Positions 4,903 through 46,939 of a DNA stretch of 64,000 nucleotides are shown here, one piece after another. Position 1 is the first letter of the stretch. The number at the start of each line of letters is the position of its first letter. Below the pieces are notes generated by a model. The model ran no database searches and had not been told where the DNA came from. It saw nothing but the letters and a program-made list of their open reading frames with translations. Source of the stretch: Escherichia coli (GTDB taxonomy: Bacteria > Pseudomonadota > Gammaproteobacteria > Enterobacterales > Enterobacteriaceae); the NCBI RefSeq assembly GCF_030384885.1, contig NZ_CP128613.1, one strand, 5' to 3'. A program made the translations under genes and the position numbers.

Positions 4903-5694
4903 ATGGGTAAACTCACGGGCAAGACAGCACTGATTACGGGCGCATTGCAGGGAATTGGCGAAGGAATTGCCAGAACTTTTGCGCGTCATGGCGCAAACCT
5001 AATCTTGCTGGATATCTCCCCTGAGATCGAAAAGCTGGCGGACGAACTGTGTGGTCGTGGTCATCGCTGTACGGCGGTTGTCGCCGATGTGCGTGACCCG
5101 ACGTCGGTAGCCGCAGCTATCAAGCGCGCAAAGGAAAAAGAAGGGCGCATTGATATCCTGGTGAATAACGCAGGCGTTTGTCGTCTGGGCAGTTTCCTCG
5201 ATATGAGCGATGAAGATCGCGATTTCCATATTGATATCAATATAAAAGGCGTATGGAACGTCACGAAGGCGGTGCTGCCGGAGATGATTGCCCGCAAAGA
5301 TGGTCGCATTGTGATGATGTCTTCGGTCACTGGCGATATGGTGGCCGATCCGGGCGAAACGGCGTATGCCTTAACGAAAGCGGCGATTGTTGGCCTGACT
5401 AAATCGCTGGCGGTGGAGTACGCGCAGTCTGGTATTCGCGTTAACGCAATCTGCCCTGGATACGTTCGCACGCCAATGGCTGAAAGCATTGCCCGCCAGT
5501 CGAATCCGGAAGATCCAGAATCGGTGCTGACTGAAATGGCGAAAGCAATCCCGCTGCGTCGCCTCGCCGATCCGCTGGAAGTCGGCGAACTGGCGGCCTT
5601 CCTCGCATCCGATGAATCCAGCTATTTAACCGGTACACAGAATGTGATTGATGGCGGCAGCACACTGCCGGAGACGGTTAGCGTCGGCATCTGA
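4903..5694 (+). CDS. ucpA: Short-chain dehydrogenase/reductase (SDR) oxidoreductase
   Basis: Track ORF trimmed to ATG at 4903 preceded by aaggagag RBS; TGxxxGxG Rossmann motif (TGALQGIG); 263 aa. Confidence 0.75.
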   Translation: MGKLTGKTALITGALQGIGEGIARTFARHGANLILLDISPEIEKLADELCGRGHRCTAVVADVRDPTSVAAAIKRAKEKEGRIDILVNNAGVCRLGSFLDMSDEDRDFHIDINIKGVWNVTKAVLPEMIARKDGRIVMMSSVTGDMVADPGETAYALTKAAIVGLTKSLAVEYAQSGIRVNAICPGYVRTPMAESIARQSNPEDPESVLTEMAKAIPLRRLADPLEVGELAAFLASDESSYLTGTQNVIDGGSTLPETVSVGI

Positions 5695-5997: not shown

Positions 5998-7014
5998 ATG
6001 GCCGTTAACTTACTGAAAAAGAACTCACTCGCGCTGGTCGCTTCTCTGCTGCTGGCGGGCCATGTACAGGCAACGGAACTGCTGAACAGTTCTTATGACG
6101 TCTCCCGCGAGCTCTTTGCCGCCCTGAATACCCCGTTTGAGCAACAATGGGCGAAAGATAACGGTGGCGACAAGCTAACGATTAAACAATCTCATGCCGG
6201 GTCATCAAAACAGGCGCTGGCGATTTTGCAGGGCTTAAAAGCAGACGTTGTCACTTATAACCAGGTGACCGACGTGCAGATCCTGCATGATAAAGGCAAG
6301 CTGATCCCGGCTGACTGGCAGTCGCGCCTGCCGAATAACAGCTCGCCGTTTTACTCCACCATGGGCTTCCTGGTGCGAAAGGGCAACCCGAAGAATATCC
6401 ATGACTGGAACGATCTGGTGCGCTCCGACGTGAAGCTGATTTTCCCGAACCCAAAAACCTCCGGTAACGCGCGTTATACCTATCTGGCGGCATGGGGTGC
6501 AGCGGATAAAGCCGACGGTGGCGACAAAGCCAAAACCGAACAGTTTATGACTCAGTTCCTGAAAAACGTGGAAGTGTTCGATACCGGCGGTCGTGGCGCG
6601 ACCACTACTTTTGCCGAGCGCGGGCTGGGCGATGTGCTGATTAGCTTCGAATCGGAAGTGAACAACATCCGCAAGCAGTATGAAGCGCAGGGCTTTGAAG
6701 TGGTGATTCCGAAAACCAACATTCTGGCGGAATTCCCGGTAGCGTGGGTCGATAAAAACGTGCAGGCCAACGGTACGGAAAAAGCGGCAAAAGCTTACCT
6801 GAACTGGCTCTACAGCCCACAGGCGCAAACGATCATTACCGATTATTACTACCGCGTGAATAACCCGGAAGTCATGGACAAACTGAAAGACAAATTCCCG
6901 CAGACCGAGCTGTTTCGCGTGGAAGATAAATTTGGCTCCTGGCCGGAAGTGATGAAAACCCACTTCAACAGCGGCGGCGAGTTAGACAAGCTGTTAGCGG
7001 CGGGGCGTAACTAA
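5998..7014 (+). CDS. cysP: Thiosulfate/sulfate ABC transporter periplasmic binding protein
   Basis: 338-aa ORF with signal peptide; first gene of the cysPUWA(M) cluster. Confidence 0.9.
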
Positions 7015-16342: not shown

Positions 16343-17104
16343 TTACCGCCACATCGCGTGTTTATCGCGATAGCAATCGACCCACATCGCCGTCGCGCCA
16401 CAAACGGCAACGGGCATAATGAACAGATTAAGCAGCGGGATCATCGTAAACAGGCTGGTTAAAGCACCAAACTGCATATTGGTGATTTTGCGTGTGCGCA
16501 GGGCGGTGCGCATCTCTTTAAACGGCACTTTGTGGTTATCGAAGGGGTAATCGCAATACTGGATGGCTAACATCCAGGCGCTAAACAGGAACCACAGTAC
16601 CGGTGCGACGGTTTGCCCAATGCCAGGGATGAAGTAAAGAATTAGCAATACAATTGCGCGCGGCAGATACCAGGCAAATTTTTGCCATTCGCGTTTCATG
16701 ATTCGCGGCACATCTTTCATGATACCGAAAATTCCGGTATCTGGCGGTGTAGCGCCAGTCAGTCTTGCTTCCAGTTGTTCAGCCAATAAACCGTTGAACG
16801 GAGCAGCAATCCAGTTAGCAATCGTTGAGAAGAAATAGCCAAACACTAACAGCACAGAGATGACAGCCAGGGGCCACAACAGATAGCTCAGCCATTGTAA
16901 CCAGTCCGGAACATAACTCATGAGAGTCGGGATCCAGACATCGAGTTGCGTAAAGAGCCACCAGAATGCGCCCCCCATCAACAAAATATTGACCAGCAGC
17001 GGTAAAATAACGAAACGCCGAATCCCAGGTTGCGAGACGAGCTTCCAGCCTTGCGCAAAATAGTAAAAACCGCTGCGTGGGGCAGATGTGAATGATGAAA
17101 CCAT
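16343..17104 (-). CDS. cysZ: Sulfate transporter CysZ
   Basis: 253-aa polytopic membrane ORF recognised as CysZ; divergent from zipA. Confidence 0.9.
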
Positions 17105-17333
17105 AATCAGGATGAGCTCCTTTTGACCAATCCCAGGAAAATTCTGCGTATTTTACCGGGTAATTGCGCAATGGACAGTTAGGATATGTTCGAAAAAACA
17201 GCAAAAAGCACGATTTCATCTATCTTTGTGCTGTGAAAGTTAATAGTGCACTTGCACTTGAGGTAATCGGCAAATACTCTTAGTGAGTAAATGTTTGCCG
17301 TGGTGGCAAGGTGTTAGAACAACAGAGAATATA

Positions 17334-18332
17334 ATGATGCAGGATTTGCGTCTGATATTAATCATTGTTGGCGCGATCGCCATAATCGCTTTACTGGTAC
17401 ATGGTTTCTGGACCAGCCGTAAAGAACGATCTTCTATGTTCCGCGATCGGCCATTAAAACGAATGAAGTCAAAACGTGACGACGATTCTTATGACGAGGA
17501 TGTCGAAGATGATGAGGGCGTTGGTGAGGTTCGTGTTCACCGCGTGAATCATGCCCCGGCTAACGCCCAGGAGCATGAGGCTGCTCGTCCGTCGCCGCAA
17601 CACCAGTACCAACCGCCTTATGCGTCTGCGCAGCCGCGTCAACCGGTCCAGCAGCCGCCTGAAGCGCAGGTACCGCCGCAACATGCTCCGCGTCCAACGC
17701 AGCCGGTGCAGCAACCCGTGCAGCAGCCTGCCTATCAGCCTCAGCCTGAACAGCCGTTGCAGCAGCCAGTTTCGCCACAGGTCGCGTCAGCGCCGCAGCC
17801 AGTGCATTCAGCGCCGCAACCGGCACAACAGGCTTTCCAGCCTGCAGAACCCGTAGCGGCACCACAGCCTGAGCCTGTCGCGGAACCGACTCCAGTTGTG
17901 GATAAGCCGAAGCGCAAAGAAGCAGTGATCATCATGAACGTCGCGGCGCATCACGGTAGCGAGCTAAACGGTGAACTGCTTCTTAACAGCATTCAACAAG
18001 CGGGCTTCATTTTTGGCGATATGAATATTTACCATCGTCATCTTAGCCCGGATGGCAGCGGCCCGGCGTTATTCAGCCTGGCGAATATGGTGAAACCGGG
18101 AACCTTCGATCCTGAAATGAAGGATTTCACTACTCCGGGTGTCACTATCTTTATGCAGGTACCGTCTTACGGTGACGAGCTGCAGAACTTTAAGCTGATG
18201 CTGCAATCTGCGCAGCATATTGCCGATGAAGTGGGCGGTGTAGTGCTTGACGATCAGCGCCGTATGATGACTCCGCAGAAATTGCGCGAGTACCAGGACA
18301 TCATCCGCGAAGTCAAAGACGCCAACGCCTGA
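17334..18332 (+). CDS. zipA: Cell division protein ZipA (FtsZ-interacting)
   Basis: Track ORF trimmed to [18 protein letters not shown]...; N-terminal TM helix, long P/Q-rich linker, C-terminal FtsZ-binding domain; 332 aa here. Confidence 0.9.
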
Positions 18333-18363
18333 TACACTTAAGGCAAATTAACTCCTCTTCGAA

Positions 18364-18385
18364 CCCCCGCTTGTCGGGGGTTTTT
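18364..18385 (+). terminator. Rho-independent terminator-like hairpin after zipA
   Basis: cccccgcttgtcggggg followed by ttttt. Confidence 0.5.
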
Positions 18386-18393
18386 AGCATTGA

Positions 18394-20418
<2,025 letters not shown>

Positions 20419-20419
20419 G

Positions 20420-20638
20420 ATGGAAAAAGAGCAGCTGATTGAAATAGCCAATACGATAATGCCGTTTGGCAAATACAAAGGGCGTCGCTTAATCGACCTG
20501 CCGGAGGAGTATCTTCTGTGGTTTGCCCGCAAAGATGAGTTCCCGGCAGGGAAGCTCGGTGAGCTAATGCAAATCACGCTGCTGATTAAAACCGAGGGGC
20601 TGACGCAACTGGTCCAGCCCCTGAAACGCCCACTTTAA
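20420..20638 (+). CDS. ypeB: Small conserved protein (DUF3820-like)
   Basis: 72-aa ORF MEKEQLIEIANTIMPFGKYKGRRL... starting 2 nt after the ligA stop; track ORF 20327.. is an in-frame upstream extension overlapping ligA. Confidence 0.6.
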   Translation: MEKEQLIEIANTIMPFGKYKGRRLIDLPEEYLLWFARKDEFPAGKLGELMQITLLIKTEGLTQLVQPLKRPL

Positions 20639-21633
20639 GCTTTATCGGCGCTGCTTTCCTGCTGCGCCTGTAACTGTTCGGTCTGGCGTTTGTATCGACG
20701 CGCCAGCACCGCACAGACCATCAATTGGATCTGATGGAAAATCATCAGAGGCAGCACCATCATACCGATCACCGATGTGGGGAACAGAATGTTTGCCATC
20801 GGGATGCCATTTGCCAGACTCTTTTTCGAACCACAAAAGACGATAGTAATTTCATCTGCCTTATTGAAGCCCAGTCGGCGTGCCATAAAGACGTTAACTA
20901 CAATCACGATAGCCAGAAGAACGCAGCTAACCACCACGATAAATAGCAATGATCCCCAGCCAACTTTATGCCAGATGCCGTTAACGACGGCTTCGCTGAA
21001 CGCAGTATAAACCACCAACAGAATGGACGTCTGGTCAGTTTTCGCAATCCATTTTTTATTTCGTGATACCCAGTTGCCAATCCAAGGGCGAGAAAGATGT
21101 CCCAGCACAAATGGCAGCAACAGTTGCAGCATAATTTTACCGACCTGCTCAAGGCTGCCCCCTGCACCGTGAACATTCATCACCAGACCAACCAGCAATG
21201 GTGAAAGGAAAATCCCCAGCAGGCTGGATGCTGACGCAGAACAAACCGCCGCCGCGACGTTACCGCCCGCCATTGACGTGAAGGCGATTGCAGACTGCAC
21301 GGTCGCGGGGAGAATGCACAAGTAGAGAAAACCGGAGTAGAGCATCGGGTCGACATTTACCGGTTTCCACCAGGCAAACAGCACGCCCAAAATTGGGAAC
21401 AGCACGAAGGTGCTGCACATTACCCACAAATGCAGTCGCCAATGACCACCGCCTGCAATAATCGCCTCTCGCGATAACTTCGCGCCGTGCATAAAGAACA
21501 GCAGAGCAATGGCTGCGGTAGTCAGATTTTCAAAGAAGGGAACGAAATCGCCCCTGGCCGGAAAGAAAGAGGCCAGCAACACCACCGTGATCAGGGTTAA
21601 GGTGAAAGGATCGAGGATACGAAAAAGTTTCAT
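20635..21633 (-). CDS. yfeH: Bile acid:sodium symporter (BASS) family membrane transporter
   Basis: 332-aa polytopic membrane ORF; divergent from the LysR regulator yfeR. Confidence 0.75.
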   Translation of the reverse strand: MKLFRILDPFTLTLITVVLLASFFPARGDFVPFFENLTTAAIALLFFMHGAKLSREAIIAGGGHWRLHLWVMCSTFVLFPILGVLFAWWKPVNVDPMLYSGFLYLCILPATVQSAIAFTSMAGGNVAAAVCSASASSLLGIFLSPLLVGLVMNVHGAGGSLEQVGKIMLQLLLPFVLGHLSRPWIGNWVSRNKKWIAKTDQTSILLVVYTAFSEAVVNGIWHKVGWGSLLFIVVVSCVLLAIVIVVNVFMARRLGFNKADEITIVFCGSKKSLANGIPMANILFPTSVIGMMVLPLMIFHQIQLMVCAVLARRYKRQTEQLQAQQESSADKA

Positions 21634-21722
21634 AAAGACTCCAGATGATCGATGGTTCTATTGTGCTTCTTCCAGTTTGAGAAATAAAATTGATTTATTG
21701 CATCCATTCATGAAGAAAAAAG

Positions 21723-22649
21723 ATGAATTATTCTTTAAAGCAATTAAAGGTTTTCGTCACAGTAGCGCAGGAGAAAAGTTTTAGTCGTGCAGGAGAGCGT
21801 ATCGGCCTGAGCCAGTCGGCAGTGAGTCACAGTGTGAAGGAGCTGGAAAATCATACTGGTGTTCGCCTGCTGGACAGAACCACGCGTGAAGTGGTGCTTA
21901 CAGATGCAGGGCAGCAGTTGGCTTTGCGTCTTGAGCGACTGCTGGATGAACTTAACAGCACGTTGCGCGATACCGGGCGTATGGGGCAACAACTGAGCGG
22001 AAAAGTTCGGGTCGCTGCCAGCCAGACCATTTCCGCGCATCTTATTCCGCAATGCATTGCTGAAAGCCATCGCCGCTATCCAGATATTCAGTTTGTCCTG
22101 CACGATCGTCCGCAGCAGTGGGTGATGGAAAGTATTCGCCAGGGAGATGTCGATTTTGGCATCGTCATCGATCCAGGCCCAGTGGGCGATCTGCAATGTG
22201 AAGCGATTCTTTCCGAGCCTTTCTTTCTGCTTTGCCATCGCGATAGCGCTTTGGCCGTGGAAGATTATGTACCCTGGCAAGCATTACAGGGAGCGAAATT
22301 GGTGTTGCAGGATTACGCGTCAGGCAGCCGACCGCTGATTGACGCAGCGCTGGCGCGCAATGGTATTCAGGCGAATATTGTGCAGGAGATTGGTCATCCG
22401 GCGACGCTGTTCCCGATGGTAGCCGCAGGCATCGGCATCAGTATTCTTCCCGCACTGGCGCTACCATTGCCTGAAGGTAGCCCGCTGGTGGTAAAGCGCA
22501 TTACGCCGGTGGTTGAACGCCAGTTGATGCTGGTGCGCAGGAAGAACCGTTCACTTTCCACCGCCGCTGAAGCGTTATGGGACGTAGTACGAGACCAGGG
22601 CAATGCGCTAATGGCTGGGCGGGAAGGGGATCCGTTGTATCAGATATAG
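21723..22649 (+). CDS. yfeR: LysR-family transcriptional regulator
   Basis: 308-aa ORF with N-terminal HTH ([14 protein letters not shown]) and LysR substrate-binding domain. Confidence 0.75.
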
Positions 22650-22687
22650 AGTGAATTCATACTGCCGGGAGCTCCGGCAGTAATCAA

Positions 22688-23452
22688 TCAAAAATTAAAT
22701 TTGATGGAGTAGATTATCGCATCCTGGTAAAAATCTTCGCCCAGTTTGTCATCCGCATAACGATACTGAATCCCTGTGGTGATGTGTGAAGTTGCATTCC
22801 ACCAAAGTGCGACGGCACCATTCAGACCTTCTTTGCCGCCATTACCTGCCGCGTAGGTGGCATCACGATCAAACTCGTACTCGTTCCAGTTGGTGAGGGT
22901 GAATTTCTCACTGCCCAGCATAAAGCTGTAACCTGCAACCCAACCGGCGACATAACCGTTATCGCCGGTATAATAGGTTTGGTCTGTATAGCGTTTTGCA
23001 AAGAACGGTTTGAACCACCAACCGCTGCCGGTGAAATTGTAGCCGATCCCGTAAAGGAACATATCGTCATGGAAATTCACACGATTCGCAGAACCGTAGG
23101 TGCCATACGCATGCAAGTAGAGATTAAATCCGGTGTCACCCAGGTAAATACGGTTGGTATTTTTAAATGTATAACGCTGCTCGCTACCCTGTTTATCATG
23201 ACGATCATTATAAAAGTTTTCCCAGTCGAAGAACCCGTACATTTCTCCCCAACTAAAGTTAGCGCCGCCTTCCAGTTCCAGATATCCAAAATCATCTTTG
23301 TGTGATTTGGTCGACGATTTCTCAGTGGTTCTGCTAGTCCAGTCAAGATAATGAATACCTATATCAGCAAAACCGCCTTTAAATTCTGCATGGGATACTG
23401 CTGGTATCGCCAATACAGAAGAGAGTGTCAGAGTAAAAAGATGTTTTTTCAT
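22688..23452 (-). CDS. yfeN: Outer-membrane beta-barrel protein (Tsx/OmpK-like)
   Basis: 254-aa ORF with signal peptide, aromatic-rich, C-terminal Phe; coordinates taken from track. Confidence 0.65.
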   Translation of the reverse strand: MKKHLFTLTLSSVLAIPAVSHAEFKGGFADIGIHYLDWTSRTTEKSSTKSHKDDFGYLELEGGANFSWGEMYGFFDWENFYNDRHDKQGSEQRYTFKNTNRIYLGDTGFNLYLHAYGTYGSANRVNFHDDMFLYGIGYNFTGSGWWFKPFFAKRYTDQTYYTGDNGYVAGWVAGYSFMLGSEKFTLTNWNEYEFDRDATYAAGNGGKEGLNGAVALWWNATSHITTGIQYRYADDKLGEDFYQDAIIYSIKFNF

Positions 23453-23700
23453 AGCATAATTCCCTATGCCGATCGTTATTAGTTGATTGCTTAATAAAAA
23501 GGTTGATTAAAAGCGGCATATTGTTAATGCAAGGGAAAGGAGAGTACCAATACAGTTTTTTCAGCCTATTAATAGTGAAAAAATATAAATATATCGATAT
23601 CGAATAACTATCGGATACATGAAAAAAGTGTATTGGTATGAGGTAGGGCAATCTCGTTATAAAAAGGCGTTAGATTCCACCCTACAAAAAAAGGATATAT

Positions 23701-24534
23701 ATGTATCAGGCTCAGTTTTCTCATAACCCACTGTATTGCGTAGATATTATCAAGACTTATAAACCTGATTTCACGCCACGAGTGGCCTTTATTTTAGGTT
23801 CCGGGCTGGGCGCGCTGGCCGATCAGATTGAGAACGCGGTCGCAATTTCCTACGAAAAGCTGCCTGGGTTCCCGGTAAGTACCGTACACGGTCATGCGGG
23901 TGAGCTGGTGCTGGGTTATCTCCAGGGGGTGCCAGTGGCGTGCATGAAAGGTCGCGGACATTTCTACGAAGGTCGTGGGATGACCATCATGACGGATGCA
24001 ATCCGTACCTTTAAGTTGCTGGGCTGCGAGTTGCTGTTCTGCACCAATGCGGCTGGCTCACTGCGTCCTGAAGTGGGGGCCGGCAGTCTGGTCGCATTGA
24101 AAGATCACATCAACACCATGCCGGGAACGCCGATGGTGGGTCTTAATGATGAACGTTTTGGTGAGCGCTTCTTCTCGCTGGCGAATGCCTACGATGCGGA
24201 ATACCGCGCACTGTTACAAAAAGTGGCGAAAGAAGAGGGGTTCCCTCTGACGGAGGGCGTGTTCGTCTCGTATCCGGGGCCGAATTTCGAGACTGCGGCG
24301 GAAATTCGCATGATGCAAATTATTGGTGGGGATGTTGTTGGTATGTCTGTGGTGCCTGAGGTTATTTCAGCTCGCCATTGCGAACTTAAAGTCGTTGCGG
24401 TCTCTGCGATTACCAACATGGCGGAAGGTCTGAGTGACGTGAAGCTTTCTCATGCCCAAACGCTGGCAGCAGCGGAACTCTCAAAGCAAAACTTTATTAA
24501 TCTTATTTGCGGCTTTCTGCGCAAAATTGCCTGA
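23701..24534 (+). CDS. xapA: Xanthosine phosphorylase (purine nucleoside phosphorylase II)
   Basis: 277-aa PNP-family ORF recognised as XapA. Confidence 0.9.
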   Translation: MYQAQFSHNPLYCVDIIKTYKPDFTPRVAFILGSGLGALADQIENAVAISYEKLPGFPVSTVHGHAGELVLGYLQGVPVACMKGRGHFYEGRGMTIMTDAIRTFKLLGCELLFCTNAAGSLRPEVGAGSLVALKDHINTMPGTPMVGLNDERFGERFFSLANAYDAEYRALLQKVAKEEGFPLTEGVFVSYPGPNFETAAEIRMMQIIGGDVVGMSVVPEVISARHCELKVVAVSAITNMAEGLSDVKLSHAQTLAAAELSKQNFINLICGFLRKIA

Positions 24535-24594
24535 GTAAAACAACAATAAACGGCCTCACTGAGTGAGGCCATATGATGCGACAAGGAAACGATT

Positions 24595-25851
24595 ATGAGC
24601 ATCGCTTTGCGCTTAAAGGTAATGTCTTTTTTGCAATATTTTATCTGGGGGAGCTGGCTGGTTACCCTCGGTTCTTACATGATTAATACCCTTCATTTCA
24701 CCGGCGCTAATGTTGGCATGGTTTACAGTTCCAAAGGGATCGCCGCGATTATTATGCCTGGTATAATGGGGATCATCGCAGACAAATGGCTGCGTGCAGA
24801 ACGTGCATACATGCTGTGTCACCTGGTGTGTGCAGGCGTACTTTTTTATGCGGCATCCGTAACTGATCCGGATATGATGTTTTGGGTGATGTTAGTCAAT
24901 GCGATGGCGTTTATGCCGACTATTGCGTTATCGAACAGCGTCTCTTATTCCTGTCTTGCCCAGGCAGGGCTTGACCCGGTGACCGCTTTCCCGCCCATTC
25001 GCGTTTTTGGTACGGTGGGGTTCATTGTCGCCATGTGGGCAGTAAGCCTGCTGCATCTGGAATTGAGTAGTCTGCAACTGTATATCGCGTCCGGTGCGTC
25101 ATTGCTGCTGTCGGCTTATGCGCTGACTTTGCCGAAGATTCCGGTTGCGGAGAAAAAAGCGACTACATCGCTTGCCAGCAAGCTGGGTCTGGATGCCTTC
25201 GTGCTGTTTAAAAATCCACGCATGGCTATCTTTTTCCTCTTCGCCATGATGCTGGGTGCGGTGCTGCAAATTACCAACGTTTTTGGCAACCCGTTCCTGC
25301 ATGATTTCGCCCGTAATCCTGAGTTTGCTGATAGCTTCGTGGTGAAATATCCGTCCATTTTACTGTCAGTTTCACAGATGGCTGAAGTCGGTTTCATTCT
25401 GACGATACCGTTCTTTTTGAAGCGTTTCGGTATTAAAACCGTCATGCTGATGAGTATGGTGGCGTGGACGCTGCGCTTTGGCTTCTTTGCCTATGGCGAT
25501 CCATCACCAACCGGGTTTATTTTGCTGTTGCTGTCGATGATTGTTTACGGTTGTGCATTCGATTTCTTCAATATTTCTGGTTCGGTCTTTGTCGAACAGG
25601 AAGTTGATTCCAGCATTCGTGCCAGCGCCCAGGGCCTTTTTATGACGATGGTAAATGGCGTCGGCGCATGGGTTGGCTCGATTCTGAGCGGTATGGCAGT
25701 GGATTACTTCTCGGTGGATGGCGTAAAAGATTGGCATACCATTTGGCTGATGTTTGCAGGGTATGCTCTTTTCCTCGCAGTGATATTTTTCTTTGGGTTT
25801 AAATATAACCATGACCCTGAAAAGATAACGCATCGTTCAGTTACACATTAA
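24595..25851 (+). CDS. xapB: Xanthosine permease (MFS nucleoside:H+ symporter)
   Basis: 418-aa 12-TM ORF downstream of xapA. Confidence 0.9.
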   Translation: MSIALRLKVMSFLQYFIWGSWLVTLGSYMINTLHFTGANVGMVYSSKGIAAIIMPGIMGIIADKWLRAERAYMLCHLVCAGVLFYAASVTDPDMMFWVMLVNAMAFMPTIALSNSVSYSCLAQAGLDPVTAFPPIRVFGTVGFIVAMWAVSLLHLELSSLQLYIASGASLLLSAYALTLPKIPVAEKKATTSLASKLGLDAFVLFKNPRMAIFFLFAMMLGAVLQITNVFGNPFLHDFARNPEFADSFVVKYPSILLSVSQMAEVGFILTIPFFLKRFGIKTVMLMSMVAWTLRFGFFAYGDPSPTGFILLLLSMIVYGCAFDFFNISGSVFVEQEVDSSIRASAQGLFMTMVNGVGAWVGSILSGMAVDYFSVDGVKDWHTIWLMFAGYALFLAVIFFFGFKYNHDPEKITHRSVTH

Positions 25852-25903
25852 AAGGATTCGCAGCTCTGTTCCTTGGGGCTGCTTTTATGATAAAGGTTAA
25901 TTA

Positions 25904-26062
25904 GTGAAAGATATTTTATTTTCTTCTGGCGTTGGTTTTGGCATTGGTGCTTTGTTTACAATCGTGCGATTACCTATTCCTGTTCCAAATGTATTGCCGG
26001 GTATATTATCCATCGTGTTTATGTATGTCGGATATCTGGTGGTGAAATACTTTATGCCATGA
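25904..26062 (+). CDS. Small hydrophobic protein, XapX-like (52 aa, GTG start)
   Basis: My own translation: MKDILFSSGVGFGIGALFTIVRLPIPVPNVLPGILSIVFMYVGYLVVKYFMP*; below the 60-aa cutoff of the track; aagg about 8 nt upstream; I recall a XapX-domain family of small membrane proteins next to xapB. Confidence 0.45.
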   Translation: MKDILFSSGVGFGIGALFTIVRLPIPVPNVLPGILSIVFMYVGYLVVKYFMP

Positions 26063-26102
26063 TAATTTAATACGATGTATTTTTTATATGGAGCACTTAA
26101 TT

Positions 26103-26987
26103 ATGGAACGCGTATATAGAACAGATCTTAAGTTGCTCCGTTATTTTCTTGCCGTAGCGGAAGAGTTGCATTTTGGTCGCGCAGCAGCGCGTTTAAATAT
26201 GTCTCAGCCTCCGCTCAGTATTCATATTAAAGAGCTGGAAAATCAACTCGGCACGCAGCTTTTTATTCGCCATTCGCGCAGCGTCGTACTGACACACGCG
26301 GGCAAAATCTTGATGGAAGAATCGCGTCGATTGCTGGTGAATGCAAATAATATATTGGCTCGGGTTGAACAAATAGGTCGGGGAGAAGCAGGGCGGATTG
26401 AACTCGGGGTTGTGGGAACGGCAATGTGGGGACGGATGCGCCCGGTTATGCGGCGATTCCTTAGAGAAAATCCTAACGTTGAAGTTCTGTTTCGCGAAAA
26501 GATGCCCGCGATGCAAATGGCCTTGCTGGAACGCCGCGAACTTGATGCCGGGATCTGGCGAATGGCGACAGAACCACCGACTGGTTTTACCAGCTTACGG
26601 TTGCATGAATCGGCGTTTCTGGTGGCGATGCCTGAAGAGCATCATCTCTCATCATTTTCCACCGTCCCGCTGGAAGCGCTACGTGACGAGTATTTCGTTA
26701 CAATGCCGCCCGTGTACACTGACTGGGATTTTTTGCAGCGAGTTTGCCAGCAGGTGGGATTTTCACCGGTTGTTATTCGCGAAGTTAATGAACCGCAAAC
26801 GGTACTCGCCATGGTCAGTATGGGTATTGGTATCACATTGATAGCGGACAGCTACGCGCAGATGAACTGGCCCGGTGTCATATTCCGTCCGCTCAAAGAA
26901 CGCATCCCGGCAGACTTATATATTGTTTATGAAACGCAGCAGGTGACGCCCGCGCTGGTTAAACTGCTGGCGGCGTTGGCGCAGTAG
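26103..26987 (+). CDS. xapR: LysR-family activator of xapAB
   Basis: Track ORF trimmed to MERVYRTDLKLLRYF... giving 294 aa. Confidence 0.85.
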   Translation: MERVYRTDLKLLRYFLAVAEELHFGRAAARLNMSQPPLSIHIKELENQLGTQLFIRHSRSVVLTHAGKILMEESRRLLVNANNILARVEQIGRGEAGRIELGVVGTAMWGRMRPVMRRFLRENPNVEVLFREKMPAMQMALLERRELDAGIWRMATEPPTGFTSLRLHESAFLVAMPEEHHLSSFSTVPLEALRDEYFVTMPPVYTDWDFLQRVCQQVGFSPVVIREVNEPQTVLAMVSMGIGITLIADSYAQMNWPGVIFRPLKERIPADLYIVYETQQVTPALVKLLAALAQ

Positions 26988-27017
26988 ATGAGAGGCACGG
27001 GAACTGCCGGACATAGT

Positions 27018-27044
27018 TGGTCTGATAAGCGAAGCGCATCAGGC
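27018..27044. repeat. REP-like palindrome
   Basis: ctgataagcgaagcgcatcag palindromic sequence typical of REP elements. Confidence 0.4.
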
Positions 27045-27057
27045 AATTTCGCAAATT

Positions 27058-27114
27058 GCAGATAGCAAAAAAGCGCCTTTAGGGCGCTTTTTTACATTGG
27101 TGGGTCGTGCAGGA
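27058..27114. repeat. 57-bp direct repeat copy 1 (terminator hairpin plus 17-nt 3' end of tRNA-Lys)
   Basis: Identical to 27214..27270; contains aaaaaagcgcctttagggcgctttttt and tggtgggtcgtgcagga. Confidence 0.8.
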
Positions 27115-27213
27115 TGACTCGCTTCGCTCGCCCTTCGGGCCGTCGCCGCGAGCGGCTCCGTTGTTTCGCTGCGCTCAACTCGAACCTGCTGCAGGTTCGA
27201 ATCTTTGAGTATC

Positions 27214-27270
27214 GCAGATAGCAAAAAAGCGCCTTTAGGGCGCTTTTTTACATTGGTGGGTCGTGCAGGA
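27214..27270. repeat. 57-bp direct repeat copy 2 (overlaps the genuine lysV 3' end and its terminator)
   Basis: Exact 57/57 identity with 27058..27114 by direct comparison. Confidence 0.8.
27223..27250 (-). terminator. Rho-independent terminator of the valU-valX-valY-lysV operon
   Basis: On minus strand gcgcc-ctaaa-ggcgc hairpin followed by tttttt immediately after lysV CCA. Confidence 0.7.
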
Positions 27271-27329
27271 TTCGAACCTGCGACCAATTGATTAAAAGTC
27301 AACTGCTCTACCAACTGAGCTAACGACCC
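27254..27329 (-). tRNA. lysV: tRNA-Lys (UUU)
   Basis: Reverse complement reads GGGTCGTTAGCTCAGTTGGTAGAGCAGTTGACTTTTAATCAATTGGTCGCAGGTTCGAATCCTGCACGACCCACCA. Confidence 0.9.
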
Positions 27330-27333
27330 GAAG

Positions 27334-27409
27334 TGGTGGGTGATGACGGGATCGAACCGCCGACCCCCTCCTTGTAAGGGAGGTGCTCTCCCAGCTGAGC
27401 TAATCACCC
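27334..27409 (-). tRNA. valY: tRNA-Val (UAC)
   Basis: Reverse complement reads GGGTGATTAGCTCAGCTGGGAGAGCACCTCCCTTACAAGGAGGGGGTCGGCGGTTCGATCCCGTCATCACCCACCA; 4 nt from lysV. Confidence 0.9.
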
Positions 27410-27455
27410 ACTTCGGTACTTCACATTTTTACAAGAAATCTAGCTGGCGAGAAAG

Positions 27456-27531
27456 TGGTGGGTGATGACGGGATCGAACCGCCGACCCCCTCCTTGTAAG
27501 GGAGGTGCTCTCCCAGCTGAGCTAATCACCC
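27456..27531 (-). tRNA. valX: tRNA-Val (UAC)
   Basis: Second identical tRNA-Val copy. Confidence 0.9.
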
Positions 27532-27574
27532 ACTTCTCAATTTCTTGCTACACGGCGGAGACTACATAAGTAGT

Positions 27575-27650
27575 TGGTGGGTGATGACGGGATCGAACCG
27601 CCGACCCCCTCCTTGTAAGGGAGGTGCTCTCCCAGCTGAGCTAATCACCC
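27575..27650 (-). tRNA. valU: tRNA-Val (UAC)
   Basis: Third identical tRNA-Val copy, first gene of the operon. Confidence 0.9.
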
Positions 27651-27908
27651 CCGCTGTGTGGAGTCGCATTATAGGGAGAGTTCAAAATGAGTCAACGCAT
27701 TTTCTAAAGAAATTGTTCGTTCGTCGTAAATTTAAGCAAGATGATCGCAAAACAGACCGTGTTGCGCAATTTCTCAACGAAAACAATAATGCATCATGTA
27801 GCAACCCGAACTACATTGAGGAATCAGGCGGGAGTGATAGAATATCGCCCACTCAATTTTTCCAGGATTTGCCGGTTGTCGGCATCTTTCTAAACGTAAG
27901 GCCATTTC

Positions 27909-29324
27909 ATGAAAATCAAAACTCGCTTCGCGCCAAGCCCAACAGGCTATCTGCACGTTGGCGGCGCGCGTACTGCTCTTTACTCCTGGCTTTTTGCACG
28001 TAACCACGGCGGTGAGTTCGTGCTGCGTATTGAAGACACCGATCTTGAGCGTTCCACGCCGGAAGCTATCGAAGCCATTATGGATGGTATGAACTGGCTG
28101 AGCCTGGAGTGGGATGAAGGTCCGTACTTCCAGACCAAACGTTTTGATCGCTACAACGCGGTGATCGATCAGATGCTGGAAGAGGGCACAGCTTATAAAT
28201 GCTATTGCTCTAAAGAGCGCCTGGAAGCGCTGCGTGAAGAGCAAATGGCAAAAGGTGAGAAACCACGTTATGACGGTCGTTGCCGCCACAGCCATGAGCA
28301 TCACGCTGATGATGAACCGTGCGTTGTACGTTTTGCTAACCCGCAGGAAGGTTCCGTTGTTTTTGACGATCAGATCCGTGGTCCGATCGAGTTCAGCAAC
28401 CAGGAGCTTGATGATCTGATTATCCGTCGTACCGATGGTTCCCCGACCTATAACTTCTGTGTGGTTGTCGATGACTGGGATATGGAAATCACCCACGTTA
28501 TCCGTGGCGAAGACCATATCAACAACACGCCACGCCAGATCAACATTCTTAAAGCCCTGAAAGCGCCGGTACCGGTTTACGCGCACGTTTCTATGATCAA
28601 CGGCGATGACGGTAAAAAACTGTCCAAACGTCACGGGGCGGTCAGCGTAATGCAGTATCGTGATGATGGTTATCTGCCTGAAGCACTGCTGAACTATCTG
28701 GTGCGTCTGGGCTGGTCCCACGGCGATCAGGAAATCTTCACTCGTGAAGAGATGATTAAATACTTCACTCTGAATGTCGTCAGCAAATCTGCCAGTGCGT
28801 TCAACACCGACAAGCTGCTGTGGCTGAACCATCACTACATTAACGCGTTGCCGCCGGAGTATGTTGCTACTCATTTACAGTGGCACATTGAGCAGGAAAA
28901 TATCGATACCCGTAACGGCCCGCAGCTGGCTGATCTGGTGAAACTGCTGGGCGAACGCTGCAAGACGCTGAAAGAGATGGCTCAGAGCTGCCGTTATTTC
29001 TACGAAGATTTTGCTGAGTTCGATGCCGACGCCGCGAAAAAACATCTGCGTCCGGTAGCGCGTCAGCCGCTGGAAGTGGTTCGTGACAAACTGGCCGCGA
29101 TTACTGACTGGACCGCTGAAAACGTTCATCACGCTATTCAGGCGACGGCGGATGAGCTGGAAGTGGGTATGGGCAAAGTTGGTATGCCGCTGCGTGTCGC
29201 CGTAACCGGTGCGGGGCAATCTCCGGCACTGGATGTTACCGTTCACGCAATCGGTAAGACCCGCAGTATCGAGCGTATCAACAAAGCGCTGGCTTTTATT
29301 GCGGAACGCGAAAATCAGCAGTAA
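27909..29324 (+). CDS. gltX: Glutamyl-tRNA synthetase
   Basis: 471-aa class I aaRS with HVGG (HIGH-type) and KLSKR (KMSKS-type) motifs; divergent from the tRNA operon. Confidence 0.95.
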
Positions 29325-29342
29325 TTAGCGCATAAAAGATAA

Positions 29343-29371
29343 ACGGCAGGAGAGATACCCCTGCCGTTTTT
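29343..29371. terminator. Rho-independent terminator after gltX
   Basis: cggcagg...cctgccg hairpin followed by tttttt. Confidence 0.6.
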
Positions 29372-29374
29372 TAT

Positions 29375-29767
29375 TTATTCTGATTCATCTATGTCGAGAC
29401 GAGCAAGGAAATGACGAATTCCTTCACGTGACAAAAATTGCGCAACTTTTTCCTGCTCACTGTGAGTCATGTTGTCTATTGCGCTGATGATTTGCCGATA
29501 AGCGGGAGTGCGAATCCCCGGTGCATATTCGGCAAGGGGTTCTTCGGCTTCCAGAAGCATCGGCGTGTTATGGAAGGCTGGTGTATTCTGAATAAACTCG
29601 CAAACTTGCGTATCGATCAGAATAAGTCTGGCGCGACCGCCTTTCACGCCGGGAAATTTTTCCGTTTTCCAGCCTTTCTCTCTGATCCAACGGTTAACAG
29701 TTTGTTTAGCCACACCGAGGCATTCCGCCAGTTCTTCGGTGGTCATTTTATTGCGTAATCTTTTCAT
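29375..29767 (-). CDS. yfeD: Small putative DNA-binding protein, paralog of YfeC
   Basis: 130-aa ORF; N-terminal HTH-like segment clearly similar to the adjacent yfeC product. Confidence 0.7.
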   Translation of the reverse strand: MKRLRNKMTTEELAECLGVAKQTVNRWIREKGWKTEKFPGVKGGRARLILIDTQVCEFIQNTPAFHNTPMLLEAEEPLAEYAPGIRTPAYRQIISAIDNMTHSEQEKVAQFLSREGIRHFLARLDIDESE

Positions 29768-29768
29768 A

Positions 29769-30128
29769 TTATTTGCTATCGCGAATCCCTAAGCGTTGTA
29801 ATAACCCGATAATCCCTTCCCGCAGAAGCAAGGATGTAAACTGTTTTTGTTCAACTGGCGTCATCTCTTTCGCCAGTGTCACCAGTAACACTTCAAGCGG
29901 CGTATCACCAGACAGGGCAGGTGCTTCTCCCTGACCTTCCGGACGTTCAGCATTGCGAATATATTCACGAACCTGTTCATTGACGTGAACCAGTCTGGCT
30001 TTGCCACCCTGGACGCCTGGTTTTGGTGACGTCGTCCAGCCTTCCTTGCGTACCCATTTATTAATGGTCTGACGGCTATAACCGGTCAGTCTGGCAAGTT
30101 CATCTGGCGTCATCCTCTCCTTGAACAT
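29769..30128 (-). CDS. yfeC: Small putative DNA-binding protein, paralog of YfeD
   Basis: 119-aa ORF immediately upstream of yfeD (1-nt gap), same strand. Confidence 0.7.
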   Translation of the reverse strand: MFKERMTPDELARLTGYSRQTINKWVRKEGWTTSPKPGVQGGKARLVHVNEQVREYIRNAERPEGQGEAPALSGDTPLEVLLVTLAKEMTPVEQKQFTSLLLREGIIGLLQRLGIRDSK

Positions 30129-30348
30129 AACAATTCCCTGAATGTATGTAGGTCTATTAGCGGTTCATTTTATAACACCACTTTACAGGAAACCGTGACA
30201 TGAATAACTACTGAATGCGAGCGGTTTTCCAAAATTGTTCATTTGCCTGATTTTTCAGCGATTGAAACTACACGCTGCAATTTGCCGTTGACACATTCGG
30301 GCGGAATTCATATGATGCCGCCCGTCAACTCGACAAGCTTTACGTGAT

Positions 30349-30424
<76 letters not shown>

Positions 30425-30463
30425 AATTTTGCACCCAGCAAATTTGGTACGTAAACGACTCGT

Positions 30464-30539
<76 letters not shown>

Positions 30540-30546
30540 AATTTCA

Positions 30547-30575
30547 AACCCTCGCTGTAAAGCGGGGGTTTTTTG
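30547..30575 (+). terminator. Terminator-like hairpin after alaW
   Basis: ccctcgc-tgtaaa-gcggggg followed by tttttt. Confidence 0.5.
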
Positions 30576-30745
30576 TCTCTGCCTTTTGCCGCTTTTGTAA
30601 TACAGTCTACATCCTGGCAGTGCCGTGTGGTGAATGCATCACTGACTGAAAAAACAGCAACAGGCTGGCCCCTGTTTGCTTCGCGATGCGAATAAACTTA
30701 TTATTTGTGTGCCTGAAAACCCCGATCAGTGAGAGTAGTGTACTC

Positions 30746-32935
30746 ATGTTTGTGGAGCATAACCTGATAAAAAATATCAAGATATTCACACTAGCGTTTA
30801 CGCTCACCGTGGTACTTATTCAGCTATCCCGTTTTATTTCGCCACTTGCCGTTATCCATTCCAGTTATATCTTTTTGGCGTGGATGCCACTGTGCGTAAT
30901 GCTGGCAATCTTGTTTATCTTTGGCTGGCGCGGTGTCGTTCCTGTTTTAGGCGGGATGTTTTGCACCAATCTGTGGAATTTTCATCTCTCTTTTTTACAG
31001 AACTCCGTCATGCTCGGCAGCCAGACGTTTGCAGTCCTGTGTGCCTGTGCAATATTACGCTGGCAATTGGGAACGCGTTGGCGTTATGGTTTGACCAGCC
31101 GATACGTCTGGCAACGTCTCTTCTGGCTTGGTTTGGTGGCACCGATTGGCATCAAATGCAGCATGTATCTTGTGGGGAATTTCTTTGATTTTCCGCTAAA
31201 GATATCTACCTTTTTCGGCGATGCGGATGCCATTTTCACGGTCGTTGATTTGCTAAGCCTTTTCACCGCAGTGCTGATTTACAACATGCTGTTTTACTAT
31301 CTCACCCGCATGATTGTAAGTCCCCACTTTGCGCAGATCCTGTGGCGCAGGGATATCGCTCCGTCGTTGAGCAAAGAGAAACGCGTATTTACCTTAAGCT
31401 GGCTGGCAGCTCTTAGCGTGCTGCTACTTCTGATGTGTACACCGTATGAAAATGACTTCATTGCCGGTTACCTGGTACCTGTTTTCTTTATCATCTTTAC
31501 CCTCGGGGTCGGTAAGCTTCGCTATCCGTTTTTAAATCTCACCTGGGCTGTTTCAACGCTTTGCCTTCTGAATTACAACCAGAACTTTTTGCAAGGGGTA
31601 CAAACCGAATATTCGCTGGCATTTATTCTCGCGGTGCTGATTTCCTTTAGTGTTTGCCTGCTCTATATGGTGCGCATTTATCATCGTAGTGAATGGCTTA
31701 ACCGACGCTGGCATTTGCAGGCGCTGACCGATCCGTTAACGCTCTTACCCAACTTTCGCGCGTTGGAACAAGCACCAGAGCAAGAGGCTGGCAAGAGTTT
31801 TTGCTGCCTGCGTATTGATAACCTTGAGTTTATGAGTCGTCATTACGGGTTAATGATGCGCGTTCACTGTATCCGCTCAATTTACCGTACGTTAATGCCG
31901 CTGATGCAGGAAAACGAAAAGTTGTATCAATTGCCGGGGAGTGAACTGCTATTAGTACTGAGCGGGCCGGAAACGGAAGGGCGACTCCAGCATATGGTTA
32001 ACATCCTGAATAGTCGGCAAATTCACTGGAACAATACCGGGCTGGATATGGGCTATGGTGCTGCCTGGGGGCGTTTTGATGGAAATCAGGAAACCCTGCA
32101 ACCCTTGTTGGGGCAGTTAAGCTGGCTGGCGGAGCAATCCTGCGCACATCATCATGTGCTGGCGCTGGATAGCAGAGAGGAGATGGTTTCCGGGCAGACC
32201 ACTAAACAGGTGCTATTGCTGAATACCATTCGCACGGCGTTAGATCAGGGGGATTTGCTGCTCTACGCCCAGCCAATTCGCAACAAAGAGGGTGAAGGTT
32301 ATGATGAGATCCTCGCGCGACTGAAATATGACGGCGGCATTATGACCCCGGATAAGTTTCTGCCCCTTATTGCTCAGTTTAACCTTAGCGCGCGTTTTGA
32401 TTTGCAAGTGCTGGAATCCCTGTTGAAGTGGCTGGCAACACACCCCTGCGACAAGAAAGGTCCGCGCTTTTCAGTCAATTTAATGCCGCTCACGCTGCTG
32501 CAAAAAAATATTGCCGGGCGGATTATTCGTCTGTTTAAGCGTTATCACATCTCCCCGCAGGCGGTCATTCTTGAGATCACCGAGGAACAGGCGTTTTCTA
32601 ACGCAGAAAGCAGTATGTACAACATCGAGCAGCTGCATAAGTTTGGTTTCCGGATTGCGATTGATGATTTTGGCACCGGCTATGCCAACTACGAACGGCT
32701 AAAGCGTTTGCAGGCTGATATCATTAAAATTGATGGCGTCTTTGTGAAAGATATCGTCACGAACACGCTGGATGCGATGATTGTGAGATCAATTACCGAT
32801 CTGGCGAAAGCGAAGTCATTGAGTGTGGTCGCGGAGTTTGTCGAGACGCCACAGCAGCAGGCGCTATTGCATAAGCTCGGGGTGCAATATCTGCAAGGGT
32901 ATTTGATTGGTCGCCCTCAGCCATTAGCTGATTAA
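30746..32935 (+). CDS. pdeA: c-di-GMP phosphodiesterase with degenerate GGDEF and EAL domains and N-terminal MASE membrane domain
   Basis: Track ORF trimmed to MFVEHNLIKNI... giving 729 aa; multi-TM N-terminus and EAL-type C-terminus. Confidence 0.75.
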   Translation: MFVEHNLIKNIKIFTLAFTLTVVLIQLSRFISPLAVIHSSYIFLAWMPLCVMLAILFIFGWRGVVPVLGGMFCTNLWNFHLSFLQNSVMLGSQTFAVLCACAILRWQLGTRWRYGLTSRYVWQRLFWLGLVAPIGIKCSMYLVGNFFDFPLKISTFFGDADAIFTVVDLLSLFTAVLIYNMLFYYLTRMIVSPHFAQILWRRDIAPSLSKEKRVFTLSWLAALSVLLLLMCTPYENDFIAGYLVPVFFIIFTLGVGKLRYPFLNLTWAVSTLCLLNYNQNFLQGVQTEYSLAFILAVLISFSVCLLYMVRIYHRSEWLNRRWHLQALTDPLTLLPNFRALEQAPEQEAGKSFCCLRIDNLEFMSRHYGLMMRVHCIRSIYRTLMPLMQENEKLYQLPGSELLLVLSGPETEGRLQHMVNILNSRQIHWNNTGLDMGYGAAWGRFDGNQETLQPLLGQLSWLAEQSCAHHHVLALDSREEMVSGQTTKQVLLLNTIRTALDQGDLLLYAQPIRNKEGEGYDEILARLKYDGGIMTPDKFLPLIAQFNLSARFDLQVLESLLKWLATHPCDKKGPRFSVNLMPLTLLQKNIAGRIIRLFKRYHISPQAVILEITEEQAFSNAESSMYNIEQLHKFGFRIAIDDFGTGYANYERLKRLQADIIKIDGVFVKDIVTNTLDAMIVRSITDLAKAKSLSVVAEFVETPQQQALLHKLGVQYLQGYLIGRPQPLAD

Positions 32936-32996
32936 CAGGCGTAAAAAAAGCAGGGAATTATCCCCGGCTTTTGTGGCTGATGACAAACAGAAAAAT

Positions 32997-33025
32997 GCCT
33001 GATGCGCTACGCTTATCAGGCCTAC
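32997..33025. repeat. REP element
   Basis: gcctgatgcgctacgcttatcaggcctac, classic REP palindrome, flanked on both sides by hairpin-T-tract terminators. Confidence 0.55.
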
Positions 33026-46204: not shown

Positions 46205-46939
46205 TTACAGATGCATTAACTGCCTGAATTCTTTTACTTTGCTACGGCTGACCGGCACTTCAAAATCCAGATCTTTCAGTCGCAGAATGTAGGTGTTATT
46301 AAACCACGGTTCGATTTCGCGGATTTTGTTCAGATTGACACAAAATGAGCGATGGCAGCGGAAAAAATGCGACGGCGGCAGCTTGCTGCAAAACTCGGTA
46401 ATGTTCATCGGCATTACGTAGGATTCACGCCGCGTATAGACAAAGGTCATTTTCTCGTGCGCTTCGGCGTAATAGATATCGTTAATTGGCGTGACGATGA
46501 TTCGCTCATCTTTCACCAGATTAATGGTGTCATTCTCACGCGTTACCGTCGCGGCAGGCGTACTGCTGGTCTGCTGTTGTTGCCAGGCTGCTTCCAGTTT
46601 TTGCAGCATCCCGGTAATGCGTGATTCCTGATACGGTTTGAGAATGTAGTCAAACGCTTCCAGTTCAAACGCTTCTACCGCATGTTCTTTCCACGCGGTG
46701 ATGAACACAATAAACGGTTTATGGGCGAACTGGCTGATGTTTTGCGCCAGCAACACACCATCCAGCGACGGAATATTGATATCCAGAAAAATGGCGTCGA
46801 CGCGGTTATGCTGCAAAAACTTCAACACGTCCAGACCGTCGTCAAAGGTGCCGACAATCTCCATCTGGCTGTGCTCTTTAATTAGCCAGCTCAGTTCCTG
46901 TTGTGCCAGGAATTCGTCTTCAACAATGATGACTTTCAC
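46205..46939 (-). CDS. ypdB: LytTR-family response regulator
   Basis: Track ORF (TTG start) trimmed to GTG giving MKVIIVEDEF...; receiver domain plus LytTR DNA-binding domain; 244 aa. Confidence 0.8.
   Translation of the reverse strand: MKVIIVEDEFLAQQELSWLIKEHSQMEIVGTFDDGLDVLKFLQHNRVDAIFLDINIPSLDGVLLAQNISQFAHKPFIVFITAWKEHAVEAFELEAFDYILKPYQESRITGMLQKLEAAWQQQQTSSTPAATVTRENDTINLVKDERIIVTPINDIYYAEAHEKMTFVYTRRESYVMPMNITEFCSKLPPSHFFRCHRSFCVNLNKIREIEPWFNNTYILRLKDLDFEVPVSRSKVKEFRQLMHL

Follow-up and report, generated by a model that had tools for sequence, protein, structure and literature searches.

A conserved 52-residue predicted membrane protein is encoded between xapB and xapR in the xap locus of Escherichia coli

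The xapABR operon of Escherichia coli is a textbook operon that encodes a xanthosine phosphorylase, a xanthosine permease and a LysR-type activator. The question raised by this locus is whether the stretch between xapB and xapR is a simple spacer or whether it carries a further gene, here referred to as xapX, and, if so, what the product of that gene might do. The window, i.e. the whole stretch of DNA that was analysed, comprises 64,000 nucleotides of E. coli (RefSeq assembly GCF_030384885.1, contig NZ_CP128613.1), and all coordinates refer to it unless stated otherwise. The features of the locus are as follows.

22688–23452, minus strand: yfeN, encoding a homologue of the Tsx-family outer-membrane channels (PF03502, Channel_Tsx), divergent from xapA
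23701–24534, plus strand: xapA, xanthosine phosphorylase (PNP family), the first gene of the cassette (RefSeq; domains of orthologues)
24595–25851, plus strand: xapB, xanthosine/H+ symporter (MFS, nucleoside:H+ symporter family; RefSeq; Pfam Nuc_H_symport on an orthologue)
25860–25888, plus strand: terminator-like hairpin between xapB and xapX, with a 9-bp stem (25860–25882), followed by TTTTAT (scan)
25893–25896, plus strand: Shine-Dalgarno-like AAGG, with a 7-nt spacer to the GTG of xapX
25904–26062, plus strand: xapX ORF, GTG start, 52 aa, predicted two-helix membrane hairpin, XapX domain TIGR03510, equal to RefSeq WP_000651752.1
26103–26987, plus strand: xapR, LysR-type activator (RefSeq start)
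27257–27650, minus strand: lysV-valY-valX-valU tRNA gene cluster

The initial annotation of this DNA had described a GTG-initiated ORF of 52 amino acids between xapB and xapR, on the same strand as both, and the sequence matches this description exactly. The GTG is found at 25904–25906 and the TGA stop codon at 26060–26062 (sequence and ORF list), and the translation of the ORF is MKDILFSSGVGFGIGALFTIVRLPIPVPNVLPGILSIVFMYVGYLVVKYFMP. It is separated by 52 nt from the stop codon of xapB (25851) and by 40 nt from the annotated start of xapR (26103). An in-frame TAA at 25898–25900, two codons 5′ of the GTG, leaves the GTG as the sole possible start and excludes a longer form of XapX. The AAGG motif that had been noted upstream of the start is indeed present, at a spacing of 7 nt, and a purine-rich Shine-Dalgarno sequence is found 5–8 nt 5′ of the xapX start in each genus compared; in the same position the run reads AAGGA in Salmonella, AGGAGG in Chimaeribacter, GGGGG in Enterobacter and AAGGGA in Phytobacter. 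The ORF surfaces in an ORF list only when the cut-off is below 60 amino acids, and the list used here was made at 30. On the distal side of the locus, the mechanically called xapR ORF begins with an ATG at 26088 (MEHLIMERVY...), 15 nt upstream of the RefSeq start at 26103, and a GGAG at approximately 26090–26093 suits the latter start. The 3′ side of xapR is occupied by an RtT RNA element (Rfam RF00391, 51.6 bits; 27098–27223, minus strand), the lysV-valYXU tRNA genes and gltX; the tRNA genes give rise to repeated spurious ORFs of the type "MMTGSNRRPPPCKGGALPAELI" in the ORF list.

An ORF of this kind could have arisen by chance inside a non-coding spacer in which the xapR promoter would lie, as would fit its short length, its GTG start and the lack of an annotation in the MG1655 reference. 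Such a reading is refuted by four observations on the match to a protein family and on the pattern of substitutions, and has next to no probability left. The profile search that had been proposed with the initial annotation places the protein in the NCBIfam family TIGR03510 ‘XapX domain’ with 64.2 bits, well over the cut-off of 27.8 (E = 5.8e-18), residues 4–50 aligning to model positions 2–48 of 49. Relative to the K-12-type allele, xapX carries seven nucleotide differences, all seven of which are at codon position 3 and synonymous, leaving the protein identical; given 38.8 synonymous sites of 156, the chance of seven out of seven synonymous changes is approximately 6e-5. The adjoining 52 non-coding bases 5′ of xapX differ from the K-12 allele at six positions (11.5%), and xapA, xapB and xapR have accumulated 6–8 amino-acid changes apiece. 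Across Escherichia, Salmonella, Enterobacter and Chimaeribacter, dN/dS for xapX is low (0.06–0.2 where computable; dN 0.14–0.22, with synonymous sites saturated) and on par with that of xapR across the same genera. Conservation of the frame across Enterobacteriaceae, another check that had been suggested, was likewise borne out: the start codon, be it ATG or GTG, aligns to one residue, and the frame and its Shine-Dalgarno sequence are kept across 10 genera of Enterobacterales, under purifying selection. Judged by these substitution patterns, selection acts on the amino-acid sequence of xapX, which is almost certainly a real, translated gene. The xapX locus has no entry in the supplementary table of the E. 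coli sORF Ribo-seq study of Stringer et al., and the xap operon is uninduced without xanthosine; the acid-stress and RiboReport supplements yielded nothing relevant to xapX.

The protein encoded by xapX is 52 amino acids in length with a GRAVY of +1.31, and AF2, supplied with a 25-sequence alignment, models two helices (residues 2–20 and 30–50) with a mean pLDDT of 86.7, in keeping with the hydrophobic protein with one or two transmembrane segments that had been anticipated. The product is thus predicted to be a two-helix hydrophobic membrane hairpin, presumably located in the inner membrane, and of a size too small for an enzyme. The helices are joined by the loop R22-L-P-I-P-V-P28, which corresponds to a nearly invariant family loop (K/R)LPxPxP, mostly (K/R)LPxPAP. 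Among 25 diverse members, reaching down to 35% identity, G15, P24, P28 and G43 are invariant and G11, L23 and P26 are at least 90% conserved, and the signature of the family can be written as MK(D/E)I...GxGxGxG...(K/R)LP(I/V)PAP...G..G(I/V).G...G(Y/F). Both helices display faces of glycine or other small residues (GxGxGxG in helix 1, and G or S at every 3–4 residues in helix 2), a pattern which suggests that the helices pack tightly, both inside one hairpin and from copy to copy. Lysine and arginine residues summed over the 25 members number 61 at both termini together versus 21 in the loop, and the extensions that the long forms of XapX bear at the N- or C-terminus are hydrophilic; on these grounds an N-in/C-in topology, in which the proline loop would face outwards, is weakly favoured. 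A Foldseek search of the PDB with the xapX model gave no match, a sequence-profile search of the PDB was empty, and no match to XapX was found in PHROGs or PADLOC.

With its score, its size of about 50 amino acids, its two hydrophobic helices, its loop and glycine pattern and its location between xapB and xapR, the protein is a full member of TIGR03510 and differs from it in no respect; indeed, the family name refers to this ORF of the xap locus, and the members share a two-helix hairpin of about 50 amino acids, an MK(D/E)I N-terminus and a (K/R)LPxPAP loop. The relationship to Pfam PF07235 (DUF1427) is of a different kind. This profile of 84 positions (gathering threshold 27.1 bits) models a long form in which the hairpin is followed by a soluble C-terminal tail, whereas E. 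coli XapX is without the tail. The E. coli protein does not match PF07235 even at E <= 10, and short homologues score 12.8–26.4 bits, below the threshold, over profile positions ~3–50 only. A long form of 96 amino acids from Rhizobium, composed of the hairpin and a 45-residue soluble tail, scores 130 bits against PF07235 and also matches the description of XapX. Given the lack of a match to PF07235, the RefSeq name ‘DUF1427 family protein’ is a loose one for the product of xapX. A single-sequence scan of 1.84 billion representatives recovered 33 relatives, all 26–93 amino acids in length, and a profile built from 25 of these recovered 1,387 protein clusters named XapX or DUF1427; the family extends over several bacterial phyla, haloarchaea and viruses. 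Members with a length of 64–82 amino acids were considered as possible fusions, a reading that was set aside as most look like mis-called upstream starts, with the MK(D/E)I start lying internally.

The distribution of the locus within E. coli was surveyed by megablast with 421 bases around xapX against 5,426 complete genomes. The xapX locus was found in about 4,060–4,080 of these and the region was absent from 1,346, about a quarter. As a separate observation on one strain, in 258E xapR is adjoined by IS1B, catA1, a GNAT gene and a Tn3-family transposon, which replace xapA-xapB-xapX. The identity of the xapX region falls in two bands, at least 99% (1,528 records) and 90–95% (2,420 records), which is consistent with deep phylogroup divergence and not with anything specific to xapX. 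Along the same lines, the possibility that the divergence of 4–8% from K-12 is specific to the xap genes could be ruled out, since positions 17000–33000 of the window average 95.7% identity to K-12 over 16 kb, dropping to 87% at the 5′ end of xapA.

The ORF had been called ‘unlisted’ in the initial annotation, and this stands for the 60-aa ORF track and for the curated K-12 MG1655 record NC_000913.3, in which there is no feature between xapR (b2405) and xapB (b2406); the expected place of xapX in that record is ~2,522,518–2,522,676 on the minus strand. It does not stand for RefSeq/PGAP, where a CDS named ‘DUF1427 family protein’ is annotated between xapB and xapR in every megablast row sampled. 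The identical protein, WP_000651752.1, is carried by PGAP-annotated genomes including K-12 derivatives, and is common to two E. coli records whose DNA differs by 5.5%. Outside the K-12 reference, the gene is annotated as a matter of routine, and as an already catalogued gene it is not a discovery; the additions made here are the association with nucleoside phosphorylase and hydrolase genes in distant lineages, the conserved inter-cistronic hairpin and a large viral subfamily. Literature searches for XapX, TIGR03510, DUF1427, PF07235, WP_000651752 or the peptide found no paper on function, and no paper with xapR was found among the small-protein literature. A 2005 census listed DUF1427 as apparently ‘plant-associated’, a label that is contradicted by the family distribution found here, and the further literature trace of xapX or DUF1427 is a mention in one gene table.

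A genome scan with an alignment restricted to Enterobacterales returned 11 loci. All 10 Enterobacterales genera examined have the genes in the order xapA-xapB-xapX, with xapX always directly after xapB. In Chimaeribacter, the four xap genes are found between metG and the rha genes instead of between yfeN and gltX, and this change of site implies that the xap cassette moves as a unit. In the Budviciaceae Pragia and Limnobaculum, a deoC equivalog (220 bits) begins ~20 nt 3′ of xapX and is only then followed by xapR, from which it appears that xapX stays with xapB rather than with xapR, as an internal cistron of a catabolic operon; this arrangement also implies read-through of the hairpin that precedes xapX and argues against the ORF being a leader for xapR. 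In most Enterobacteriaceae, yfeN keeps synteny with the cassette, and in Budviciaceae it is found ~2 kb upstream; by this synteny its product may be an outer-membrane component of the same pathway.

The hairpin between xapB and xapX begins nine bases 3′ of the xapB stop codon in E. coli, and its stem survives five substitutions within it between two E. coli alleles, both of which were folded. A GC-rich hairpin is present right 3′ of the xapB stop in nine of the 10 genera, with unrelated sequences, and is followed by a T-run in about half of them. It is probably a partial terminator or an mRNA-stabilizing 3′ structure that sets the level of xapAB above that of the distal genes. A scan for sigma-70-like promoters over 25600–26300 returned none at threshold, inspection of the xapB-xapR spacer by eye revealed no convincing sigma-54 motif, and no Rfam element was found in the same spacer.

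Homologues were sampled in about fourteen types of gene context. Those in nucleoside contexts beyond the Enterobacterales cassette are distant from E. coli XapX, with 37–47% identity or in another domain of life. In Aeromonas caviae the order is tatD-nupC-xapX-deoC-deoA-deoB-deoD, in a MAG of an uncultured member of the Enterobacterales it is nupC-yjdM-xapX-deoB-deoD, and in the Vibrionaceae Salinivibrio and Photobacterium it is xapX-deoD, with no transporter nearby. In the haloarchaeon Halomarina, genes for a nucleoside hydrolase, USP, ECF S/T/A and a RihA-like nucleoside hydrolase are followed by xapX with a 4-nt overlap. The spans of these homologues, within their excised loci, are as follows.

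5001–5171, 5001–5171, 5001–5168, 4965–5159 and ~6004–6171: distant XapX homologues in nucleoside contexts

As an aside on the source record, NZ_AP026896.1, a 4.94-Mb Aeromonas caviae ‘plasmid’ in PLSDB, carries deoCABD, nupC and tatD and is clearly a chromosome, with a gene table that is nearly empty. The remaining contexts are heterogeneous. In Natrinema, xapX is convergent with a gene for 5′-deoxyadenosine deaminase, an ambiguous case, and on a Yersinia frederiksenii plasmid it follows a KdgM porin gene and, after a gap of 2 nt, the gene for a GPH-type MFS transporter. One locus has an FMN reductase gene followed by xapX with a 4-nt overlap, and another has the arrangement csoR / xapX-rlmH. 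Two distant Firmicutes (Salibacterium and a Thermoanaerobacteraceae MAG) share DUF1934-argS-xapX, with pyrG next in one of them; in Brevibacillus a sugar-type operon ends with UPF0261, PEP_hydrolase and xapX; and in Rhizobium the long form lies in an aromatic ring-cleavage operon (dioxygenase, hydrolase, long-form XapX, amidohydrolase). Nucleoside-related arrangements make up four of the about fourteen context types in this small, non-random sample, which is far above what is expected of a random gene, the chance being roughly estimated as of order 1e-4. The three arrangements from Gammaproteobacteria may, however, go back to a common ancestor, in which case they are not independent. The transporters encoded next to XapX genes are mutually unrelated, namely MFS-NHS (XapB), MFS-GPH, CNT (NupC) and ECF, with none in Vibrionaceae, and as far as these gene orders tell, the common denominator of the nucleoside contexts is the cleavage of purine nucleosides and not one permease.

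The family is also well represented in viruses. At least 563 viral contigs of IMG/VR carry a XapX of the KLP(V/I)PAPP subfamily, and in viral contigs of ~100 kb xapX is part of a fixed module, DnaE-MazG-RecA-...-xapX-...-PD-(D/E)XK. Gene 83 of the halovirus HCTV-1 (46366–46527), which already bears the GenBank note ‘XapX’, encodes a protein of 53 amino acids with 42% identity to E. coli XapX; it sits in the replication region of an archaeal virus, between polB/acyltransferase and the RFC clamp loader, whereas E. coli xapX sits in a catabolic operon. Geobacillus virus E3 has an unannotated copy at 75919–76077.

What, then, might XapX do? It would appear, with a confidence that is somewhat better than even, that XapX is a small membrane protein co-expressed with nucleoside catabolism, encoded by the third cistron of a mobile xapA-xapB-xapX(-xapR) cassette; that it is functionally tied to nucleoside utilization is about an even proposition. 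Two glycine-rich transmembrane helices, joined by the rigid and nearly invariant (K/R)LPxPxP loop, would form a hairpin in the inner membrane. The protein would be translated from its own Shine-Dalgarno sequence and GTG, on mRNA that results from read-through of the post-xapB hairpin and possibly, perhaps constitutively, on that of xapR as well. It could then support the uptake and catabolism of purine nucleosides in the role of a small partner, a modulator or an oligomeric element; co-induction with xapAB would be expected, and XapB is the obvious candidate for a partner in E. coli. Against a role in nucleoside metabolism stand the many family members that lack a nucleoside context (FMN reductase, csoR/rlmH, argS, sugar-type, ring-cleavage and viral loci). 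It also counts against this reading that, to our knowledge, the paralogous transporter NupG works without a XapX-like partner.

A narrower proposal is that XapX is a dedicated accessory subunit of XapB, which binds the xanthosine permease and stabilizes or tunes it in the manner of AcrZ with AcrB or KdpF with KdpABC. It would explain why xapX directly follows xapB in every Enterobacterales locus examined, and it would suit both the position of the Y. frederiksenii plasmid homologue 2 nt after the gene for a GPH-family MFS transporter and that of the Aeromonas gene after the nucleoside transporter gene nupC. However, the proposal is unlikely from the available gene orders. The neighbouring transporters come from unrelated families, to all of which a single 52-residue hairpin is unlikely to fit specifically; the Vibrionaceae have xapX-deoD without a nearby transporter, other homologues lie by genes for unrelated soluble enzymes or in viral replication modules, and consistent co-occurrence with one transporter family is not found. 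The conserved terminator-like hairpin between xapB and xapX, T-run included in about half of the genera, is moreover unexpected for a stoichiometric subunit. Even further from the permease, it has to be considered whether the translation of the ORF matters only for the expression of xapR or for mRNA stability, the peptide itself being functionless. The end of xapX lies 40 nt before xapR, xapR has been reported to be constitutively transcribed (PMC7205307) and a SELEX peak of the RpoN holoenzyme maps to the xapB-xapR spacer (PMC8743547), all of which would suit a regulatory uORF. This is nevertheless extremely improbable and near refuted, given the selection on the amino-acid sequence, the spread of the family across several bacterial phyla, haloarchaea and viruses, the separation of xapX from xapR by deoC in Budviciaceae and the lack of a downstream LysR gene for most homologues, so that a uORF and a chance ORF are both essentially excluded. 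A type I toxin-like peptide, for which a stand-alone locus with an antisense RNA, a narrow phylogenetic range and one helix would be expected, was also considered and ruled out by the location in a catabolic cassette, the broad range of the family, the two helices and the lack of an Rfam element in the spacer.

The main alternative to a tie with nucleosides is that XapX is a generic, self-associating glycine-zipper hairpin, serving as a small pore, an anchor or a modulator of membrane state, whose position in the xap locus is historical and whose membership of operons is opportunistic. The heterogeneous neighbourhoods across the family, the glycine-rich faces on both helices and the carriage of XapX in DNA-replication modules by HCTV-1 and the IMG/VR contigs would all be accommodated by such a protein, as would the long forms (the true Pfam DUF1427), in which the hairpin may serve as the anchor of the 45-residue soluble tail. 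The movement of the four-gene cassette as a unit speaks against it, as do the PNP or nucleoside hydrolase genes that adjoin xapX in four differently organized loci, one of them archaeal, a pattern that is hard to obtain by chance; we regard this alternative, too, as rather unlikely. At the other extreme, the hairpins could constitute a widespread, transporter-independent factor of nucleoside supply, e.g. one that, as an oligomer, facilitates or activates the flux of nucleosides or nucleobases in concert with intracellular phosphorolysis or hydrolysis, and would be carried in the replication modules of tailed bacterial and haloarchaeal viruses to boost the supply of DNA precursors. This bolder idea must be regarded as very unlikely. 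The reading of XapX as a small membrane protein co-expressed with nucleoside catabolism remains the preferred one.

The locus is of some, if modest, practical consequence for work on the xap system in any of these cases. The gene xapX is a conserved member of a textbook operon, yet it has remained outside the curated K-12 annotation and the literature found here, and models and deletions of the xap system leave it out of account; when the ‘xapB-xapR intergenic region’ is deleted or replaced in a construct, a conserved, predicted membrane protein is in fact taken out. XapX is repeatedly paired with genes for PNP or a nucleoside hydrolase, in Enterobacterales, Aeromonas and Vibrionaceae as well as in a haloarchaeon, and this provides a concrete hypothesis for the family, one that is cheap to test in E. 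coli.

XapX can be compared with two types of known small membrane protein. The c-subunit of ATP synthase is a hairpin of two helices, the first of which carries a GxGxGxG motif, joined by a short conserved loop that opens with a basic residue, and these motifs drive its tight packing into a ring. XapX is alike in its predicted hairpin, in the GxGxGxG of helix 1 and in the basic residue at the start of the loop, a resemblance that may be taken as a structural analogy only. AcrZ (with AcrB), KdpF (with KdpABC) and MgtS (with MgtA) are small membrane partners of transporters that consist of a single helix and whose partners have been shown experimentally. XapX resembles them in being hydrophobic, in its size class of about 50 amino acids or fewer and in having its gene by or within a transporter operon, but it is predicted to have two helices, and homologues of it are encoded alongside several mutually unrelated transporters or without any.
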